NCBI GenBank assembly: GCA_964016885.1
Contig: OZ024757.1
Location: forward strand, 41,788,001-41,852,000
Direction: 5' to 3'
Source of the DNA: Eledone cirrhosa
Lineage: Eukaryota
Length of the DNA stretch: 64,000 bases
Part shown: one piece after another, positions 2,534 to 56,460 of the stretch
Layout: every line of letters starts with the position of its first letter
Position numbering within the stretch: position 1 is the stretch's first letter
Notes under the pieces: model-generated
The model's input: only the letters and a program-made list of their open reading frames with translations
Database searches by the model: none
Told to the model about the DNA's origin: nothing
Program-made: the position numbers and the translations under genes

Positions 2534-2581
2534 ATATATATATATGTTGAAAATTGCAAACTTGACTGTCACCACACATTA

Positions 2582-2620
2582 TGAACCTGAAGATTGCGAA
2601 AGCATGAAAGTACTTGTTCA
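2582..2620 (+). ncRNA. Minimal type I hammerhead ribozyme motif
   Basis: Stem I tgaac/gttca; core CTGAAGA 2587-2593; stem II tgc-GAAA-gca; GAAA 2606-2609; palindromic stem III AGTACT. Predicted cleavage after 2615. Confidence 0.8.
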
Positions 2621-2773
2621 ATTAACATTTAATATTCTATCATACTATTTCATTATAATACCATTATAAATTTTAAAGGATTGTAAATAAAACGAGTAAA
2701 TCAGACAAAGTTGGAATTCCTTTTATTAATATAATCTTCTATACACAATCATACACACCCGTGTATATTTATC

Positions 2774-2805
<32 letters not shown>

Positions 2806-3387: not shown

Positions 3388-3452
3388 TATTTCATTATAC
3401 ATATTTCAAGGATACCATGTTAAATTATGGTATGCCTTCATCAGACAAAATA
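3388..3452 (-). ncRNA. Hammerhead motif, family E
   Basis: Minus strand: tattttgt-CTGATGA-aggcataccat...atggtatcctt-GAAA-tatgta-TA-atgaaata. Homologous to 6116-6176. Confidence 0.7.
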
Positions 3453-3954: not shown

Positions 3955-4003
<49 letters not shown>

Positions 4004-4084
4004 CTTGAAGCATGGAAAATGGACACAAATGATGATGATATATATTCATATGTATTTACATTTATATATATACATACATATATA

Positions 4085-4122
<38 letters not shown>

Positions 4123-4151
4123 CATATATATATTTATATATATATATATAT

Positions 4152-4338
4152 AGCTTTAATATAGATGAGATTCTACAGGACTAGAACTGTTTCATTCTTT
4201 AGAAATCATCAGGAATCTGGGTATCAAAATGAAACAGTTCTAGTCCTGTAGAATCTCATCTATATTAAAGCTTTTATACTCTGCAATGTATTGAGTACCT
4301 TACTTACTGTGGTTACCTCCGATTCAACCCGGAATAAC

Positions 4339-4340
<2 letters not shown>
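4152..4340. mobile_element. Family B HHR element with fold-back (4152-4272)
   Basis: 4152-4196 is the reverse complement of 4228-4272. The tail is homologous to 18690-18770 and 45892-45970 and abuts (TA)n. Confidence 0.85.
4168..4218 (-). ncRNA. Type I hammerhead ribozyme motif, family B
   Basis: agattc-CTGATGA-tttctaaaagaat-GAAA-cag(ttctagtc)ctg-TA-gaatct, with all three stems paired. Confidence 0.85.
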
Positions 4341-4383
<43 letters not shown>

Positions 4384-4459
4384 AACATATATCTATCTAT
4401 ATATATATATATATAATTCTTATTCAGTGTATTTATTATCGTTGCTCGTTATATTTAAA

Positions 4460-4690
4460 TCACTCAGGAGACAGAAATCTGTGTTAGTCTTCATGCTTTC
4501 TCCTTTCTAATTTACATTTAAGCAGCACCAAAAATAGTCTCTTTTCAGACTCTTGCTAATAGAAGATAATAGAAGCATACATGATTCTACGTGGAAATAC
4601 TGGCTACAAATATTTACATAAACAGACTACAGGCCGTAGAAACTTTGGGATAAACAAGTCTATATTTGTCTTTGATATGTTTAGTTTCGC
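4460..4690 (+). pseudogene. Possible decayed Penelope-like GIY-YIG endonuclease C-terminal fragment
   Basis: Frameshifted translation gives KSVLV..H..AAPKIV...KIIEAYMILRGNTGYKYL, resembling the K-I-I-E-A-x-x-I...N..G..L end of PLE GIY-YIG domains. TA-flanked. Judged by eye only. Confidence 0.35.
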
Positions 4691-4762
4691 ATATATGTGT
4701 GTTTTCATATATATATATATACCCATCTAGAATGTATCTATACATACACACATATACATACA

Positions 4763-4796
<34 letters not shown>

Positions 4797-4889
4797 ACAA
4801 AGGAATTGTGGAAAGGAACCAGAGGGACCATAACGCACCAGAGTACTCAATACTTTGGGTAGTAGATTGGGAAATAGGAAAAGGTATGA

Positions 4890-4984
4890 CCCCGACGGCA
4901 GAGCTCAAGCCGTTCTGACGGCTATTTCTGGACTAAATTAGAATTTTTAGCCTGGTGAATAAATAGCTGAACTTGTCAAGGGGG
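4890..4984 (-). ncRNA. Hammerhead motif, family H, U3-A8 core variant (GAAA decayed to AGAA in this copy)
   Basis: cccc-TTGACAA-long stem II (gctattt/aaatagc, ggctaaa/tttagtc)-AGAA-cggc(ttgagctct)gccg-TC-gggg. Sister copies at 25117-25150, 5600-5632 and 63316-63350 keep GAAA. Confidence 0.65.
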
Positions 4985-5041
4985 TACTTCCTTATATGGG
5001 AAGATTGTAGCTGTCAAGAGGAAATATATATATATATATAT

Positions 5042-5143
5042 GAAAAGTTTCAGGACCCCGACAGCTGAGCTCTGTCCGTTTCAACAGCTAGATCCCAACT
5101 CTTACATTATGCTCCACCTGGTATCTTACCACACCCTCTTTGT
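5042..5143. mobile_element. Family H rearranged fragment
   Basis: HHR 3' half (ggaccccgacagctgagctc..ccgtttc) joined to an inverted piece of the family tail. TA-flanked. Confidence 0.75.
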
Positions 5144-5592
5144 TATATATATATCAAAGGTATATATAAATATATATCAAAGGTATATATAAATATATAT
5201 CAAAGGTATATAAATATATATCAAAGGTATATATAAATATATATCAAAGGTATATATATTGAGTTAGGAACTCAAAATAGTCTCTTACAATAAAATAGAA
5301 TTAAGAAAGAGATATTTCCGAGCCGTATATTATAATTGAATATAAAAGAAACACGAACACAGATATATACATATATGTGTTGAAATCGTAAGGGACCAGA
5401 TTCACTAAGGTGAAAAGAATACTAACTATAGACAATAGGGTTTGCCTGTCTCAATTTAAGAATAAATCAAGAAAATAAATACAAACCGGAATTGTGGTAA
5501 CTACCAATCACCTAGGCAACTCTTGGTGCTGTTTCGCAATGTTAATTGTGAATAGAATTACCAATTCCTGCTATATATATACATATGTATAT

Positions 5593-5731
5593 GAAGGACC
5601 CTGGTGGCTGAGCCCCGGCCGTTTCGACAGCTAGTTTGGGGCTCCTTCATATTACCACACTGTATTACTCCAAATATCAAGTACTCTGGTGAGTAATGGT
5701 CTAACAGGTTTTTACTGCATCCATTCTGATT

Positions 5732-5733
<2 letters not shown>
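5593..5733. mobile_element. Family H rearranged fragment
   Basis: ggaccctggtggctgagccccggccgtttcgacagcta followed by the inverted tail (aagtactctggtg...). Confidence 0.7.
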
Positions 5734-5768
<35 letters not shown>

Positions 5769-5982
5769 GCATAAATATGTATATCTTTCTCTGTATATAT
5801 ATGTTTATATATATATATATATATATATACAGGCATAAATATGTATATCTTTCTCTGTATATATATATATATATATACAGGCATAAATATGTATATCTTT
5901 CTCTGTATATATATATATATATATATACAGGCATAAATATGTATATCTTTCTCTGTATATATATGTTTATTTATATATATAT

Positions 5983-6243
5983 AAGCAAAAGGGATATACA
6001 ATTTGCTGGTAATTCAACAAATATAAATGTTTATAACTGATTCGAAACACTCGACAGGTTTTCTGGAGTATAATATTCAATGATATTAAATAAATGGAAA
6101 CTATCAAACCATATTTATTGTATTATATATATTTCAAGGGTACCAAAACTTTGGTACGCTCTCATCAGATAAAATACAAAGTGTGTTTTATAAATATTGA
6201 CATAACCAAGAAAAAATACCTTAACTATTCAAGTTTTTCCTGG
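5983..6243 (-). mobile_element. Family E HHR element
   Basis: TA-flanked. Its 3' end (aagcaaaagggatat on the plus strand) matches 41295-41311 inverted. Contains the HHR at 6116-6176. Confidence 0.8.
6116..6176 (-). ncRNA. Type I hammerhead ribozyme motif, family E
   Basis: tattttat-CTGATGA-gagcgtaccaaagttttggtaccctt-GAAA-tatata-TA-atacaata, with palindromic stem III ATATATAT. Confidence 0.8.
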
Positions 6244-6318
6244 ATATATATATATATATATATATCATCATCATCATCATCATCATTTTACGTCTGCTTT
6301 TCCCCGCTTGCAAGGGTG

Positions 6319-6445
<127 letters not shown>

Positions 6446-6823
6446 TGTACGTATTTCCAAGACATAACTTATGTAATTATTCATACTGCAGTATGTTCAG
6501 TGTAACTGTTTTCAATGTTGCCATCTCAGGCCTAGTAAACATATATATATATAAATATATAATATATAATATATACATATATATACATATATATAGAGAG
6601 AGAAAAAAAGGTATTGCTGGAAGTAGCACAGAAGTATATTTAAAGAATCTGTTTTTCTTCTTTAATCCGACAAAGTGATTATTGAAAACAGGAGTCAAAC
6701 CTTTTGTTTCTATAACCTTTGTTTAGAACCTTACCTCCTTTTCATATATATATATAATAATAATAATAATAATAGTAATTATAATGAATGTGAAGACTAA
6801 AATCTAAAGAGGGCTCGATAAGG

Positions 6824-6867
<44 letters not shown>

Positions 6868-6868
6868 T

Positions 6869-7011
6869 AAACCATAGAGCAAATATTTATTAAAATAACA
6901 GATTAAAGTTTAAGCAAAGAATCGCTGCTTTCACCCATAACAGGATTTTCAGAACAGAAGATCCCATTAAGGGTGAAAGCAGTGATTCTTTGCTTAAACT
7001 TTAATCTGTTA

Positions 7012-7019
<8 letters not shown>
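6869..7019. mobile_element. Family A fold-back with two opposed HHR halves
   Basis: Arms about 6887-6945 and 6960-7019. Plus strand reads CAGAAGA-tcccattaagggt-GAAA-gcag..ttgc-TT-aaact. Confidence 0.85.
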
Positions 7020-7067
<48 letters not shown>

Positions 7068-9226
7068 AAGAAGTGTAAGTCAACAGGTTAAAATTAAATT
7101 CGTTTATTCATATTTGTCATGATATTTATATATATATATATACATATATTGTCCATAAACACAGCTTTGTTACAATTTAGGGAAGAATACTAACAATATT
7201 TATCTTATCTATGAAACAATGTGTTACGTACTAGCAGGATATGGGGAGGGAGAGGCGGGACATTAATAAAATTTAGCCACAAAAATACAACAAACAATAA
7301 GATAAGATAAAACCAACATGAAGTGATTTGTTCAAATATGTTGTCAAAAAAAATGGATCGGTTTAAGATGAAAATAAATGTAGAACATATATAGAAGATT
7401 CTCTTCACAAGATACAGAGAAAAAAAACATGTTTTATTCCAAATAAAAGCAAATATCTATGAAATGAAGAATGATAAATGGTGAATGGTGATACTTTAGT
7501 CTACAGTTTTCATTTAGGGTGGTGTGGGGTGAGGTGGAGTAAGGTTGGGTGAGGTTGGGTGATATATCTGATTGACTGATGCAAGGAGGGGTGCCATCAT
7601 TGAAATTACGGTTATTTGGTTGTATGTATTTATATATATATTCACATTGACAGATGATATCTATATATATATATACAAATCTATACACATGCACATATAT
7701 ATACGTATGATGATGAGATATATATATATACATATTTATATTCTGACTTATATTGAGCTGTGTAGTTTGGTGTTGTTATTGTTGTGTCCAAATATAGATA
7801 CACATGTATATCGTGACTCATACACTGTTCACTTTCCTGATATTTGTACATTATTCTATGCACTATACATGCACCTTTGATCAGTTGTAGTGCACCTGAG
7901 CACTGTACACAATAATTTCATTATTGCCATTATTATTTATATGTTAGGCAGACCTAGATACATTGATAGGTGTTGTTGTTTTTATTGCTCTAAGATAAAT
8001 ATCTAAAGCTAGCAGCAGTTGACCACTGACCAGCTTGTCAACACTGTGAGAGAATGAGAAATCTTGGCAGGAAGGTAAATATGAAATTACAATTTCCCTG
8101 TTAAAGTTAACACAAATGGTTTTCTTATAATGATATATATTTTGAGAGTATGTCAGTTTATTGTAAGCTGATAGAATGCAGACACATCTCACTTTTTTCA
8201 GCTTAATAGACTGAAGTAATGGGAAATAAAGTGTCTTGCTCAAGGTCACAATGTACTACCTGGAATCAACCTTTCAACCTTATGAATGTGAAACAAATGC
8301 CCTCATTAATAAACTACACACCTTCATATAAGTACATATATACATACACACATACATACAAAAATACACATATATACATACACACATATACTTACAGAGA
8401 TACATATACATACACATATTTGTACACACACGTATACATACACATAGATATATAGACAGACACACGCATAAATATATACATATACACATACACACATATA
8501 TATAACACATATATACACACGTATATACATGCATACATACACACATATATATAACACATATATACACACGTATATACATGCATACATACACATATACATA
8601 TATACATATACACACAGACTCACATATTCACACATATATACATAAATACATACACACATAAACATACATACCATAACCCATGCTAGCATAGAAAATGGAC
8701 GTTAAAAGATGATAATAAATACATACTCATACATACATATATAATCATACATATACATACTCATACATACATACGCACACGCACACCCATACATGCACAC
8801 ATACATACTCACACACATTCACACATATATACACACACATACATATATATACACATTCATACATACTCACGCTCACACACATACTCACTCATACACACAC
8901 ACACATATATACATAGACACACATATATATAAGTTGTTTATTATTTAAACTAAAACCTCTATAACTAGGCAACCTGTCAGAAAACTATTTCTATTCAAAA
9001 CAATTTTTCCTCAGTAAATCCTTCTTTTTATATATTTTTCTCTTCTATGACAGTATATCAAATAATTTGACATCCTACTTTGATATCTTTATATACACAT
9101 GTTTGAATAAAATATATATATTATATCTTTATATACACGTTTGAATAGTAGAGCTATTATATATATATATATTATATCTTTATATACACATTTGAATATT
9201 CTAACTATAAAATGTATTTCTAGGAA

Positions 9227-18689: not shown

Positions 18690-18880
18690 TAAGTTTATCC
18701 CGGGTTCAATCGGGGCTAACCACAGTAAGTAAGGTACTCAATACATAGCAGAGTATAAATATTTCATATAGAAATGGCTTCTACAGGACTAGAACTGTTT
18801 CATTCGGTAGAAATCATCAGGAAGCCTGATGATTTCTACCAAATGAAACAGTTTTAGTCCTGTAGAAGCCATTTCTATAT
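18690..18880. mobile_element. Family B element with fold-back 18766-18880; complete HHR at 18776-18826 (minus)
   Basis: ggcttc-CTGATGA-tttctaccgaat-GAAA-cag..ctg-TA-gaagcc. The mirror plus-strand copy at 18826-18870 lacks the 5' strand of stem I. Confidence 0.88.
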
Positions 18881-25021: not shown

Positions 25022-25163
25022 TAACGGAAGAAATGTGGTAAGGAACCAGGTGGACGATAATGCACCAAAGTACTCAATACTTAGGGTAGTAGAGTGGGTA
25101 ATAGGAACGAGTAGGACCCCGACGGCTGAGCTCAAGCCGTTTCGACGGCTAATTCTGGACTAA
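25022..25163 (-). mobile_element. Family H element (HHR 3' half plus tail)
   Basis: Homologous to 4797-4937. Minus strand reads gtc-GAAA-cggc(ttgagctca)gccg-TC-ggggtcc. Confidence 0.8.
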
Positions 25164-25384
25164 AAAAAAAAAAAAAATATGAATATATATATATATATAT
25201 ATATATTACTATACAATATAGAAATGGCTTCTACAGGACTAGAACTGTTTCATTCAAAGGAAAGAACCCGGGTTACATATATATGTATATATTTATGTAT
25301 ATATATATATGCAAGCAGGGAAAAGCGAACATAAAATGATGATGATGATATATATATATTTATTTATTTCTATTTATATAATGG

Positions 25385-26065: not shown

Positions 26066-27446
26066 CTGCCTGTCACCCACCTTGTGTATTATCTCTCTGT
26101 CGACCACTGCCTGTCACCCACCTTGTGTATTGTCTCTCTGTCGACCACTGCCTGTCACCCACCTTGTGTATTGTCTCTCTGTTGACCACTGGCTGTCACC
26201 CACCTTGTGTATTGTCTCTCTGTTGACCACTGGCTGTCACCCATCTTGTGTATTGTCTCTCTGTTGACCACTGCCTGTCACCCACCTTGTGTATTGTCTC
26301 TCTGTTGACCACTGCCTGTCACCCACCTTGTGTATTGTCTCTCTGTAGACCACTGCCTGTCACCCACCTTGTGTATTGTCTCTCTGTTGACCACTGCCTG
26401 TCACCCACCTTGTGTATTGTCTCTCTGTCGACCACTGCCTGTCACCCACCTTGTGTATTGTCTCTCTGTTGACCACTGCCTGTCACCCACCTTGTGTATT
26501 GTCTCTCTGTCGACCACTGCCTGTCACCCACCTTGTGTATTGTCTCTCTGTCGACCTCTGCCTGTCACCCACCTTGTGTATTGTCTCTCTGTCGACCACT
26601 GCCTGTCACCCATCTTGTGTATTGTCTCTCTGTTGACCACTGCCTGTCACCCACCTTGTGTATTGTCTCTCTGTCGACCACTGCCTGTCACCCATCTTGT
26701 GTATTGTCTCTCTGTAGACCACTGCCTGTCACCCACCTTGTGTATTGTCTCTCTGTTGACCACTGCCTGTCACCCACCTTGTGTATTGTCTCTCTGTCGA
26801 CCACTGCCTGTCACCCACCTTGTGTATTGTCTCTCTGTCGACCTCTGCCTGTCACCCACCTTGTGTATTGTCTCTCTGTCGACCACTGCCTGTCACCCAT
26901 CTTGTGTATTGTCTCTCTGTTGACCACTGCCTGTCACCCACCTTGTGTATTGTCTCTCTGTAGACCACTGCCTGTCACCCACCTTGTGTATTGTCTCTCT
27001 GTTGACCACTGCCTGTCACCCATCTTGTGTATTGTCTCTCTGTCGACCACTGCCTGTCACCCACCTTGTGTATTGTCTCTCTGTTGACCACTGCCTGTCA
27101 CCCACCTTGTGTATTGTCTCTCTGTCGACCACTGGCCACTGATCTCTGAGGCATTAAATATCATCTGCCTGTCACCCACCTTGTGTATTGTCTCTCTGTT
27201 GACCACTGGCCACTGATCTCTGTCCTCTGAGGCATTATATATCATCTGCCTGTCACCCACCTTGTGTAGTGTCTCTCTGTTGACCACTGCCTGTCACCCA
27301 CCTTGTGTATTGTCTCTCTGTTGACCACTGCCTGTCACCCACCTTGTGTATTGTCTCTCTGTTGACCACTGGCCACTGATCTCTGTCCTCTGAGGCATTA
27401 TATATCATCTGCCTGTCACCCACCTTGTGTAGTGTCTCTCTGTCGA
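26066..27446. repeat. 41-bp minisatellite (~30 units)
   Basis: CTGCCTGTCACCCACCTTGTGTATTGTCTCTCTGT(T/C/A)GACCA head-to-tail without spacers. Distal units are interrupted by 30-40-bp inserts. Confidence 0.97.
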
Positions 27447-36167: not shown

Positions 36168-36180
36168 ATATATATATATA

Positions 36181-37371
36181 GCAGGGACTAGAGAGAAAGG
36201 GCCTCAAAGTCAACATGACAAAGACTAAGGTCCTTGTAAGTAGACGAGAAAACAGAACCCAGATCCCCTCAGGGAAATGGCCTTGCTCAGTATGTAGGAA
36301 AGGTGTAGGTAGGAACTCCATTCTCTGCCCCAAATGCAAACAATGGGTACACAAGAGATGTAGCGGGATCTCAGGAAGCTTAATTAAGAATGTAGGATTC
36401 ACATGCAGCAGCTGTGCTGAAACAGCAAGCAAACAGCCACAGGAAACAAGTACCACCAATCTCTGGGAGGGCCCTGTAGAAACAGTAGACAGCTTCTGCT
36501 ACCTAGGTGACCGAATTAGCAATGGAGGTGGGTGCTCAGAAAGTACAATAACTAGGGTAAGAACGGGATGGAAGAAGTTTAGGGAACTACTACCACTGCT
36601 AGCTGCAAAAGGCTTCTCCCTCAGAATGAAATGCAGACTGTATGATGCGTGTATCCGAACAGCGATGTTGCATGGTAGTGAGACCTGGGCGCTGAAGGTG
36701 GAAGACTTACGTAGATTAGAGAGAAACGAAGCCTGCATGCTCCGATGGATGTGTAACAGTAATATACGTGAACGACAAAGCATAAAGGAATTGAGAGAGA
36801 GACTGAGCATAAGAGGAATCAAATGCTGCGTGCAGGAGAGGCGGTTACGCCGGTATGGACATGTGATGCGTATGAAGGATGACAGCTGCATAAAAAGGTG
36901 CAGAGCACTAGAAGTTGATGGAAACCGCGGAGTGGGGAGACCCAAGATGACTTGGGATGAGGTGATAAAAGCCGACCTTACCCAACTACACCTCTCAAAG
37001 ACAATGACACACGACCGTGACTTCTGGCGTCACGCAGTAATACAGGGTACCCGACCTCCCATGGGTACATGCTGAAGCATATAAACAATATGCCCCCACT
37101 CCCCCCACCGCAAGGTGGTCGTGGAGGTGCCACGGCAAAAAAGCACCCAGCCCACACTGTAAAGTGGACGTGTAGGCGCCACGAAAAAGCACCCAGCACT
37201 CACTGTAAATGAGGTTGGTGTTAGGAAGGGCATCCAGCTGTAGAAATCAAGCCAGATCAGTTCCTGTATGAGCAAGGCATGGTCAGCCGACCAGACACTG
37301 CCCACAACAGGACAACCCGTCTAACCCATGCTAGCGTGGAAGAACGGACGTAAAACGGTGATGATGATGAT
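36181..37371 (+). mobile_element. 5'-truncated RTE-clade LINE (ORF2 C-terminal part 36215-37075, 3' UTR, (GAT)n tail)
   Basis: Nearly identical to the 54176-55380 copy. Motifs NMTKTKVL, FCYLGD, LRRYGHVMRM and GRPKMTW. Confidence 0.95.
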
Positions 37372-37402
<31 letters not shown>

Positions 37403-40920: not shown

Positions 40921-41046
40921 TTGTTCTGATGAAGGACTAGCATCCAAAACGTTAAGACCCTCTTCTTGCTATTTCAAGCGTTAAACTAATATATTCCTTT
41001 CATGTACTGTACTGTTTGTTTTGTTTTTTTCTGTTTACCTTTTACA
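40921..41046 (+). mobile_element. Family F 3' end with decayed minimal HHR (40921-40958)
   Basis: CTGATGA-agga(ctagca)tcc-AAAA-cg-TT-aagac. Tail homologous to 63505-63590. Confidence 0.65.
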
Positions 41047-41064
41047 TACATATATATATATATA

Positions 41065-41311
41065 CAATGATATTAAATAAATGGAAACTATATTTATAAA
41101 ACCATATTTATTCTATTATATATATTTCAAGGGTACCAAAATTTTGGTACCCTTGAAATATATATAATAGAATAAATATGGTTTTATAAATATAGTTTCC
41201 ATTTATTTAATATCATTGATATTATACTCCAGAATATCTGTCGAGTGCTCTGAATCAGTTATAAACATTTATATTTGTTGAATTACCAACAAATTGAATA
41301 TCCCTTCTGCT
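41065..41311. mobile_element. Family E element with perfect 154-bp palindrome (41065-41218)
   Basis: The palindrome centre 41141/41142 lies in the HHR stem II loop (gtaccaaaa/ttttggtac). Confidence 0.92.
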
Positions 41312-45891: not shown

Positions 45892-46060
45892 AAGTTTATC
45901 CTGGGTTCAATTGGGGGTAACCACAGTAAGTAAGGTACTCAATACAAAGCAGAATATAAATATTTAACATAGAAAAGGCTCCTACAGGACTAGAACTGTT
46001 TCATCCTAGTGATTTTTCCCGAAAAAAACAGTTCTAGGTCTGTAGAAGCCTTTTCTATAT
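45892..46060. mobile_element. Family B fold-back with HHR core deleted
   Basis: atagaaaaggct..ctagaactgttt / aaacagttctag..agccttttctat. Confidence 0.8.
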
Positions 46061-46125: not shown

Positions 46126-46688
46126 AAAAAATGAAATTTCATTTCTCACTCTTAGTATGGCTGATACTTAAATATAAGTATGTATCCAAACATACATATA
46201 TGTATACCGATGTACAGAGGTATATATATATACATACATGCACACACATATATATGTATGTATGGGTTTACCGAACATTTATTATAATGCTCGGTTTGTT
46301 TGTAAACAAACATCCCGAATTAAGCCGTACAGTGTTCAGCAACCATCGTCGCCCTTTTGTTCAACACTGACAAAGGAACGATGAACTAGTTTCTAGCTTA
46401 TTAGCTGTCATCAGCACCATATACCTTCCTGTCAGTCGATTGAACGTTTGAAAGTATATACTTTCCTTATGCATATTAACGGCCGAGCAGCCTAATTTGC
46501 ATATTGAGTGAGTTAGTCGGCCAGGCGCATCGAAAACGATAAATGGAAAAAATGAAATTTCATTTCTCACTCTTAGTACGGCTGTTACTTAAATGTAAGT
46601 ATGTATACGTACATACATATATACATACAGACGTACAGTAGTATGTATATATATATATACATGCACACATATATATATATGTACGTAC
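46123..46688 (-). mobile_element. Family I: ~140-bp direct repeats (period 421 bp) flanking an HHR-bearing core
   Basis: 46123-46262 is similar to 46544-46688. HHR at 46380-46418. Confidence 0.7.
46380..46418 (-). ncRNA. Minimal type I hammerhead ribozyme motif
   Basis: ggtg-CTGATGA-cagct(aata)agcta-GAAA-ctag-TT-catc, with palindromic stem III ACTAGT. Confidence 0.75.
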
Positions 46689-48091: not shown

Positions 48092-48222
48092 TGTTTCTGA
48101 AGAAAATGGCCGATTTAACAGGGATTTTGAGACTAGAAATAGGGTGTAACTTAACTACTACCATGTTAGTCAATATATTGATCTCCACCAATCTATTGAT
48201 CCTCTGAAACGATCGTAAAACA
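48092..48222 (+). ncRNA. Hammerhead motif with ~100-nt stem II region
   Basis: tgttt-CTGAAGA-...cctct-GAAA-cgatcg-TA-aaaca. Stem III is the palindrome ACGATCGT; the base of stem II is poorly paired. Confidence 0.6.
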
Positions 48223-54012: not shown

Positions 54013-54175
54013 TGGGTGGGTGTGTATATATAAATATATATATACACACATATATATATTTATATATATAGGTATATATTTATATATCTATATATATATA
54101 TATATATACTTATGTAACTTGGTTAAGATGCGCTATCTAATTAGTTACTTCAACAATCTATTTCCGTCGAATTAT

Positions 54176-56460
54176 ATCATCATCATCATCATCATCACCG
54201 TTTTACGTCCGTTCTTCCACGCTAGCATGGGTTAGACGGGTTGTCCTGTTGTGGGCAGTGTCTGGTCGGCTGACCATGCCTTGCTCATACAGGAACTGAT
54301 CTGGCTTGATTTCTACAGCTGGATGCCCTTCCTAACACCAACCTCATTTACAGTGAGTGCTGGGTGCTTTTTCGTGGCGCCTACACGTCCACTTTACAGT
54401 GTGGGCTGGGTGCTTTTTTGCCGTGGCACCTCCACGACCACCTTGCGGTGGGGGGGGGGGGGGGGGGGCATATTGTTTATATGCTTCAGCATGTACCCAT
54501 GGGAGGTCGGGTACCCTGTATTACTGCGTGACGCCAGAAGTCACGGTCGTGTGTCATTGACTTTGAGAGGTGTAGTTGGGTAAGGTCGGCTTTTATCACC
54601 TCATCCCAAGTCATCTTGGGTCTCCCCACTCCGCGGTTTCCATCAACTTCTAGTGCTCTGCACCTTTTTATGTAGCTGTCATCCTTCATACGCATCACAT
54701 GTCCATACCAGCGTAACCGCCTCTCCTGCACGCAGCATTTGATTCCTCTTATGCTCAGTCTCTCTCTCAATTCATTTATGCTTTGTCGTTCACGTATATT
54801 ACTGTTACACATCCATCGGAGCATGCAGGCTTCGTTTCTCTCTAATCTACGTAAGTCTTCCACCTTCAGCGCCCAGGTCTCACTACCATGCAACATCGCT
54901 GTTCGGATACACGCATCATACAGTCTGCCTTTCATTCTGAGGGAGAAGCCTTTTGCAGCTAGCAGTGGTAGTAGTTCCCTAAACTTCTTCCATCCCGTTC
55001 TTACCCTAGTTATTGTACTTTCTGAGCACCCACCTCCGTTGCTAATTCGGTCACCTAGGTAGCAGAAGCTGTCTACTGTTTCTACAGGGCCCTCCCAGAG
55101 ATTGGTGGTACTTGTTTCCTGTGGCTGTTTGCTTGCTGTTTCAGCACAGCTGCTGCATGTGAATCCTACATTCTTAATTAAGCTTCCTGAGATCCCGCTA
55201 CATCTCTTGTGTACCCATTGTTTGCATTTGGGGCAAAGAATGGAGTTCCTACCTACACCTTTCCAACATACTGAGCAAGGCCATTTCCCTGAGGGGATCT
55301 GGGTTCTGTTTTCTCGTCTACTTATAAGGACCTTAGTCTTTGTCATGTTGACTTTGAGGCCCTTTCTCTCTAGTCCCTGCTTCCAGGTTTGGAATTTATT
55401 CTCTAGTTCTACCATAGATTCAGCTATGAGTGCGAGGTCATCAGCATACAGGAGTTCCCATGGGCATCCGGTCTTAAACTCCTCCGTTATTGCCTGCAGG
55501 ACTATGATGAACAGGAGAGGGCTAAGAACAGAGCCCTGGTGGACCCCAACCTGTACGCTAAATTCCTCGCTATACTCATTGCCAATCCTAACTTTGCTGA
55601 CTGCTCCCCTATACATGGCTTGTACCGCTTTCACAAGCCATTCATCTACTCCTAGTTTTCTAAGAGCCCACCAGATTACTGCACGTGGAACTCTGTCAAA
55701 GGCTTTCTCAAGGTCGACAAATGCCAAGTAGAGTGGCTTACTTTTAGCTAGGTACTTTTCCTGTAATTGCCTCACAAGGAAGAGCGCATCAGTGGTGCCT
55801 TTCCCTGGTACAAACCCAAATTGCATCTCGTCTATATTCACCCGGTCCCTAATCAGCTGTGCTATAACTCTTTCTGTTACTTTCATGACCTGGTCCATCA
55901 ACTTTATACCTCTATAGTTTCCTCTATCTAGTGCATCGCCTTTACCTTTGTAGCAGTTGACAATGATGCTACTGCACCAATCTTTTGGTATGGCCCCCTC
56001 TAGTATTACCTGGTTAACGATACGTGTGGTTATAGTGTGACCTACAGACCCAGATGCCTTCAGCATCTCGGCAGCTATACCCGATGGACCGGTTGCCTTC
56101 CCTATCTTCATATCTCTGATTGCCTTACTTACTACGCTGCCGCTGACTTGTACTGCTGGTCCCTCTATAGGGTCTACGTGGGGTAGGGTCTCTTCTTCCC
56201 ATGCATTCTCCTCATTTAGTAATCTATCATAATGACTCTTCCATGCATCTTTCTTCTCAGCACTTGTGAGGGCAAGCTCACCTTTATCATTCCGGATACA
56301 CTTCTCTCCAATGACATCACAACTATCTCTGACACACTGCCTCGCAATCTTGAATACCTCCTGTTTCTGGTCCTCACGTTGTAAAACATGCTTGAATTTT
56401 CTATCCTCTGCTTCCCTCCTAGCTAAGTATACTTGTCGCCTAGCTTCCCTCTTGGTCTCT
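54176..56460 (-). mobile_element. 5'-truncated RTE-clade LINE, recent insertion
   Basis: Uninterrupted RT ORF, ~310-bp 3' UTR, (GAT)n tail. The 5' junction is in (TA)n. Confidence 0.97.
54486..56459 (-). CDS. Partial ORF2: reverse transcriptase with PHD-like Cys/His finger; endonuclease domain missing
   Basis: KGKGD..NYRGIKL, QFGF, FVDLEKAFD, GVHQGSVLSPLLF, LLYADD, C4HC3 motif. The N-terminal residues of the listed ORF derive from microsatellite. Confidence 0.95.
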   Translation of the reverse strand, partial: ETKREARRQVYLARREAEDRKFKHVLQREDQKQEVFKIARQCVRDSCDVIGEKCIRNDKGELALTSAEKKDAWKSHYDRLLNEENAWEEETLPHVDPIEGPAVQVSGSVVSKAIRDMKIGKATGPSGIAAEMLKASGSVGHTITTRIVNQVILEGAIPKDWCSSIIVNCYKGKGDALDRGNYRGIKLMDQVMKVTERVIAQLIRDRVNIDEMQFGFVPGKGTTDALFLVRQLQEKYLAKSKPLYLAFVDLEKAFDRVPRAVIWWALRKLGVDEWLVKAVQAMYRGAVSKVRIGNEYSEEFSVQVGVHQGSVLSPLLFIIVLQAITEEFKTGCPWELLYADDLALIAESMVELENKFQTWKQGLERKGLKVNMTKTKVLISRRENRTQIPSGKWPCSVCWKGVGRNSILCPKCKQWVHKRCSGISGSLIKNVGFTCSSCAETASKQPQETSTTNLWEGPVETVDSFCYLGDRISNGGGCSESTITRVRTGWKKFRELLPLLAAKGFSLRMKGRLYDACIRTAMLHGSETWALKVEDLRRLERNEACMLRWMCNSNIRERQSINELRERLSIRGIKCCVQERRLRWYGHVMRMKDDSYIKRCRALEVDGNRGVGRPKMTWDEVIKADLTQLHLSKSMTHDRDFWRHAVIQGTRPPMGTC

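Follow-up and report, generated by a model that had tools for sequence, protein, structure and literature searches.

The closest described relatives of the motif analyzed here are the type I hammerhead ribozymes (HHRs) of PLE pLTRs, for which the accessible parts of PMC4209133 describe a short helix I, an additional base following the first core box, a palindromic helix III, U3-A8 variants, a location within the terminal repeat of RT-GIY-YIG elements, and copies that are mostly solo or on opposite strands. These traits are all shared by the copies described below. The same source reports the G10.1-C11.1 pair as highly conserved, though not universal, among PLE type I minimal HHRs, and it sets out a dimer model for HHRs with a palindromic helix III, together with weak cleavage of dimeric constructs and a low activity in vitro. 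Its supplement gives a consensus that names the palindrome and lists two molluscs; no cephalopod term was found in one supplement of that paper. The accessible text of PMC6765202 gives the same dimer model, citing Lunse et al. The original prediction for this locus, that minimal HHRs with a palindromic helix III cleave as dimers, is therefore an already published model and by itself adds a genome and no mechanism. A literature search on octopus and hammerhead found nothing by title or abstract start, in a collection that scarcely covers subscription papers.

Amphibian satellite HHRs and non-LTR retrozymes, as described in the available part of PMC7229834, are similar in their weak palindromic helix III, and theirs cleave faster as dimers. 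Retrozymes are non-coding tandem units of 170-400 nt with one HHR each, whereas the focal motif derives from a coding element of 4.2 kb. Neptune PLEs, in the part of PMC8557442 at hand, combine a C-terminal GIY-YIG domain with a CX2-5CxxC linker (common to Neptune, Nematis, and Naiad), (TA)n targets, a frameshift-separated upstream ORF, inverted 5'-truncated arms, and an HHR near the 3' end, and the parent element of the focal motif is alike in these respects. For a lizard PLE, Poseidon of Anolis, the accessible portion of PMC11167929 reports that the HHR cut only upon addition of protein and that uncut RNA is the main template, as it may be here, and insertions of both elements have two preferred 3' ends. 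That source describes no RNA-seq reads ending at the cut, whereas in the present element a few insertions start there, joined to RNA.

The window, meaning the whole 64,000-nt stretch of DNA that was analyzed, comprises positions 41,788,001-41,852,000 of contig OZ024757.1 from the 3.0-Gb genome of Eledone cirrhosa and is AT-rich, with abundant microsatellites. Its repeats and a divergent 18S piece have an octopod appearance. A strict descriptor detected 5 HHR loci in it compared to a mean of 0.03 in 30 shuffles, indicating that these motifs exceed chance. An Rfam scan of the window gave no hammerhead among the matches listed (150 of 340), only (TA)n-driven miRNA matches. The focal motif, of family A, displays a 5-bp helix I, an intact core (boxes at 2587-2593 and 2606-2609), a 3-bp helix II with a basal U-U, and a 6-nt palindromic helix III (2609-2614), with a cleavage triplet at 2613-2615 that does not end in G and a predicted cut between 2615 and 2616. 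The U-U that family A carries in place of G10.1-C11.1 sets the focal motif apart from the description in PMC4209133, as do palindromes that here reach 8-18 nt. However, a U-U helix II base has been described for an axolotl HHR (PMC7229834, available part), and the absent G10.1-C11.1 pair thus does not exclude membership of the PLE type I class. The surrounding pLTR fragment is the sole family A copy in the window and is 93% identical to a natural full-length family A unit in locus L184. Coordinates are collected in Table 1.

Table 1. HHR motifs and related fragments in the window (positions counted from its first nucleotide).
Feature	Position	Strand	Details
Solo pLTR fragment, family A (Neptune-like PLE)	2546..2789	+	244 nt; -70 to +183 around predicted cut; flanked by (TA)n tracts
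Type I minimal HHR, family A	2582..2620	+	Descriptor, fold energies, pattern matches
Type I minimal HHR, family B, intact; 6-nt palindromic helix III 46385-46390	46378..46420	-	Descriptor
Family C HHR, very young subfamily; not cited in the original prediction	3388..3452	-	Descriptor
Family C-related HHR; AT-only 8-nt palindrome 6125-6132; helix I broken	6116..6176	-	
Family D HHR-like motif; helix II ~100 nt; 8-nt palindrome 48209-48216	48092..48222	+	
Family E minimal HHR; 4-nt palindrome 40949-40952	40922..40957	+	G12 = A
Family H fragment; helix III 5-6 bp, palindromic loop 25127-25134; ends before first core box	25050..25170	-	
Family F HHR inverted pair (18826+, 18820-); 16-nt interrupted palindrome; not cited in the original prediction	18766..18880	both	
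Further family F copies	4159-4265; 25216-25254; 45969-46060		

The original prediction had named five helix III strings and a palindrome in the family H loop, and these were present at their positions in six of six cases, those at 46385 (family B), 6125 (family C), and 25127 (family H) as part of minus-strand motifs. As ribozymes, two of the six examples (2587+ and 46414-) pass the strict descriptor and the other four fail it, three of the six being decayed or core-less. Helix I is broken in 6168- (family C-related), the ~100-nt helix II of 48097+ (family D) is decayed, the first core box is absent from the family H copy, and G12 is lost in 40926+ (family E), where its replacement by A predicts an inactive copy. 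The cited strings are all palindromes, as stated in the prediction. Three descriptor-passing motifs that it had omitted are not strictly palindromic: 3444-, self-complementary only if two G-U pairs are allowed, and the family F motifs 18820- and 4212-, with their interrupted 16-nt palindrome. No HHR copy has a same-strand partner less than 2.7 kb away within the window. Tandem partners sought there were not found for families A, B, and D; where a family has further copies in the window, these are inverted or partial, or lie 2.7 kb or more away. The copies in the window are fragments, either solo or inverted and in several cases decayed; they have no plausible cis partner and are predicted to be inert. 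The window also holds a self-inverted family C-related fragment (41091-41192), a minisatellite of 41 nt x 26 copies with 96% matches (26066-27134), and an inverted duplication of ~1.2 kb with 98-99% identity and 17 kb between its arms (36180-37383 and 54173-55381).

Relatives of these copies vary in preservation. Helix III is identical in 27/29 rows of family B as read by eye, and the very young family C subfamily represented in the window, 26/51 of whose matches are 100% identical, has an 8-nt helix III that is self-complementary only with two G-U pairs. Family C-related copies with an intact helix I and the palindrome of 6125-6132 occur at loci L174, L180, and L192. Family D is old and decayed, with relatives 81-86% identical and the palindrome intact in 11/20 full rows (by eye). 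For family E, the palindrome was seen by eye in 17/22 rows and G12 in 7/22, in a row set biased by the query.

The parent element was characterized through family A, whose search pattern left the four central helix III bases free and gave 6,020 matches. At locus L024 the HHR lies 3' of an RT + GIY-YIG frame in the same sense, and at L024, L184, and L185 it is found in the pLTR in ORF sense. The unit at L182-L185 is 4.2 kb with one HHR each, and successive HHRs are spaced 4,202-4,211 nt apart on one strand. ORF2, a 775-aa frame, matched RVT_1 (E 2.9e-06; 27.6 bits, just below the 29.6 cut-off) and GIY-YIG (E 3.2e-06), and a CX4CxxC linker was read in its translation. A protein search scored 150 matches, of which many lie in 775-aa open frames and some belong to arrays. 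A PDB sequence search with ORF2 gave 0 matches, Pfam gave no match on partial RT frames, and ORF1 (449 aa from the first Met) had no confident Pfam match. ORF1 overlaps ORF2 by ~90 nt (L185:2995-3085), and this overlap carries a run-of-U slippery heptamer, which we take to be of the HIV type; the arrangement suggests a -1 frameshift. The flanks show (TA)n targets and inverted truncated arms, units are tandem or partially tandem, and insertions have two preferred 3' ends, at +127 and +188. On the basis of its (TA)n targets, inverted arms, and CX4CxxC linker, family A fits Neptune-type PLEs by description rather than by an RT tree, and the element is apparently active. The focal motif does not match a non-LTR retrozyme, being a solo copy derived from a coding parent. 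Elsewhere, L198:281-3381 (G000:C3, 190.00 Mb) holds an array of at least 11 units, 309-311 nt long, all with an intact type I HHR and a 6-nt palindromic helix III; this array, alone among the loci, looks like a non-LTR retrozyme.

To address helix III across families, a descriptor requiring the core, helix I, and helix II, with no demand on helix III, was applied to 1.19 Mb, made up of the window and 113 stretches of 10 kb at round coordinates (two of which adjoin the window). This yielded 146 matches compared to 15, 9, and 12 in three shuffles, and strict palindromes were present in 68/146 compared to 0, 0, and 2. The density of ~110 descriptor-passing HHRs per Mb above shuffles corresponds, by rough extrapolation, to ~3 x 10^5 per genome, compared with 4,000-9,000 given under another descriptor in the accessible text of PMC4209133. 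Grouping placed 113 matches in 19 multi-locus families; the remaining 33 formed 30 single-locus groups, which the family test did not include. Classified by their most frequent string, the 19 families comprise 12 strict palindromes (one on a 1:1 tie), 1 that needs G-U, 4 interrupted palindromes, 1 four-way tie, and 1 that is non-palindromic. Among pairs enclosing <3 nt, which are too tight for a monomer hairpin, 31/35 are Watson-Crick against a chance of 0.269, and the four pair types are even (8, 8, 8, and 7), with G-C or C-G accounting for 16/31. The nominal P of 3e-14 for this 35-pair test is overstated because families share ancestry. When only the innermost pair is counted, 13/15 distinct strings are Watson-Crick (by eye; P ~2e-6, by hand). 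Furthermore, families with an identical helix I differ by two compensatory changes at the centre of the 8-mer.

These results support selection on helix III self-complementarity across families, as judged from sequence. The original prediction had argued for selection from independent recurrence, and across families (68/146 and 31/35) that argument stands; within a single family, recurrence is mostly shared descent. The palindrome is kept in 91 of the first 100 family A matches listed. We rejected within-family conservation as evidence of selection. The family A copies are identical by descent, so their identity cannot show selection, and the 9 variants are scattered, with none compensatory.

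Family J is the clearest exception. It is represented by 9,138 very uniform matches in two subfamilies, with tandem copies ~4.1 kb apart (e.g., L162 and L181), and the centre of its helix III was Watson-Crick in none of the first 100 listed (57 A-A and 43 G-A type, by eye). A strict palindrome is thus not universal among families. A duplex can accommodate tandem G-A or A-A pairs closed by G-C and be stabilized by them, and family J may accordingly dimerize non-canonically, or act otherwise. The family H pattern gave 45,303 matches, and its loop carried the 8-nt palindrome in 51 and the 6-nt centre in 92 of the first 100 listed (by eye). A core-like box, atypical in form, was found upstream in 1/43 sampled family H copies, and family H is consequently not an established ribozyme. 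Families F and H can form monomer helices of 4-6 bp, the helix III of family H being 5-6 bp.

We consider it likely that the focal motif is a PLE pLTR HHR, solo here, and that tandem HHRs of this kind pair via helix III and cut slowly, probably aided by protein. The firm basis for this model is the motif itself, its place 3' of a same-sense RT-GIY-YIG frame, the tandem spacing, and a helix III pairing that cannot form as a hairpin. Transcription would start ~70 nt before the cut site, and the two HHRs that engage each other would be carried by one tandem transcript, the assisting protein probably being that of the element. Reverse transcription may start internally at ~+127 or +188, mostly on uncut RNA, and such copying would scatter solo and inverted end-pieces like those of the window; a minority of templates would be cut beforehand. 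Fold energies favor the dimer, as a lone helix III pair in the monomer of the focal motif is calculated to cost 5.3 kcal/mol and a double hammerhead reaches -13.8 compared to -8.4 kcal/mol for two monomers. The cofold minimum (-16.4) is another duplex, in which the cleavage-site base is paired. The predicted dimers of tandem copies find a counterpart in the layout of the parent element, with HHRs 4.2 kb apart, but not in the solo or inverted window copies. The dimer prediction is hence partly supported, appearing to fit the parent element and the families overall and not the stranded window copies. A limit of the model is its requirement that the partners locate one another across 4.2 kb.

Helix III could instead pair in trans between two element RNAs held by a dimeric element protein, with the palindrome linking two templates. 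Such linkage would explain the frequent inverted two-armed insertions, and several observations are consistent with it: of the 40 presumed-start junctions sampled, 35 abut an antisense arm, three events (L276/277, L323, and L328) have each of their arms beginning precisely at +1, the lizard PLE protein is a predicted dimer according to the accessible part of PMC11167929, and families F and H retain a palindromic loop centre though able to fold alone. However, the same inverted arms arise from one RNA copied twice, Naiad PLEs, described in the available part of PMC8557442 as being without canonical HHRs, still make inverted insertions, and at -4.8 kcal/mol a 6-bp duplex is a weak link between separate RNAs. 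We regard pairing in trans as unlikely.

A monomer chaperoned by the element protein, with the palindromes as leftovers or a minor aid, would account for the protein-dependent cutting of the lizard HHR (PMC11167929, accessible part) and for the success of family J without a Watson-Crick centre. This appears quite unlikely to us, given that 31/35 pairs are Watson-Crick, in all four types, at positions that a monomer cannot pair, and family J may still dimerize through purine pairs. As for the palindromes being a product of chance or AT-richness, or of a selective choice of examples in the original prediction, the prediction did omit the three non-strict window cases, one of its examples is AT-only in a (TA)n-rich genome, and A15.1-U16.1 is fixed by the core. 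Yet this is contradicted by the 68/146 strict palindromes, where shuffles gave 0, 0, and 2, and by the 16/31 pairs that are G-C or C-G, and we consider it very improbable.

If paired HHRs on tandem transcripts do cut, some insertions might begin at the cut, and these were analyzed post hoc. Junctions exactly at the predicted cut numbered 40 pattern matches, compared to 9 at -10 and 24 at +14, and 670 lay at a fixed upstream point, a count obtained with a looser pattern; this point is probably the transcription start. The 5' ends did not show a narrow maximum at the cut: 427 junctions fell in the interval from -5 to +8, and the first 100 of these were spread out (by eye, 16 at -1, 8 at +1, 7 at +2, 15 at +3, and 9 at +5), many of them being fold-backs with microhomology. 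A count test for family B gave 13 at +1, 11 at +8, and 8 at -31, with no excess at the cut.

The 40 cut-site matches correspond to 39 loci, which were reduced to 28 insertions by merging four pairs (one event each) and dropping 7 intact-motif indels. Fusion to sense RNA was found in 5/28 insertions beginning at +1 compared to 0-1/77 control junctions (Fisher P 0.001-0.005). In four of these, at L264, L272/273, L275, and L283, one insertion connects +1 to sequence of matching sense from far within the element, and at L272 the same 845-nt junction is passed twice. At L328:1531-1819, 289 nt of 18S rRNA in sense orientation are flanked by two element arms, each of which begins at +1. The 77 controls, drawn from 40/670 start-site, 9/9 at -10, 22/24 at +14, and 30/427 mixed loci, contained one low-complexity false match and no true fusion; they were left unmerged, whereas +1 insertions were merged into events. 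Of the mixed control loci, eight that begin at -1 may in fact be +1 cases, and these show no fusion. L325/L326 and L268 were excluded from the RNA fusions, their upstream DNA being without identity. In the 4.8-kb inverted pair at L325/L326, one and the same coding-like sequence with 83-nt repeats adjoins +1 in each arm (upstream of 1504), and at L268:1407-1503 a 97-nt spacer, which may be a host RNA fragment, separates the (TA)n target from +1.

The +1 fusions hint at HHR cleavage in vivo. Tentatively, and with slightly more doubt than confidence, we propose that the dimer-type PLE HHR cuts in the germ line, that its 5'-OH product is ligated by RtcB, and that family J dimerizes via purine-purine pairs. 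Ligation by RtcB before reverse transcription would explain the +1 fusions, and parallels are given, in the accessible parts of the respective papers, by RtcB ligation in U6/LINE-1 chimeras (PMC6789731) and by circularization of retrozyme circles with RtcB in vitro (PMC7229834). Alternatively, the RT might switch templates whenever it reaches a free 5' end, but no fusion was present among the sampled start-site junctions. A search for literature on cut-site chimeras in PLEs found none by title or abstract start, again with subscription papers scarcely covered.

Cutting in vivo is left open in the accessible parts of PMC4209133, PMC8557442, and PMC11167929, and cut-site insertions provide a cheap genomic probe for it; the cut-site fusions are, in our view, the one lead worth following. 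If germ-line cutting and RtcB ligation do occur, the junctions to internal element RNA and 18S rRNA, together with the repeated circle-like junction, would constitute fossil proof of cutting in the germ line. The 19 or more HHR families of this genome, along with the identical tandem copies of one apparently active family, form a natural series for a test of the dimer model, and this series includes a family without a Watson-Crick centre, family J.
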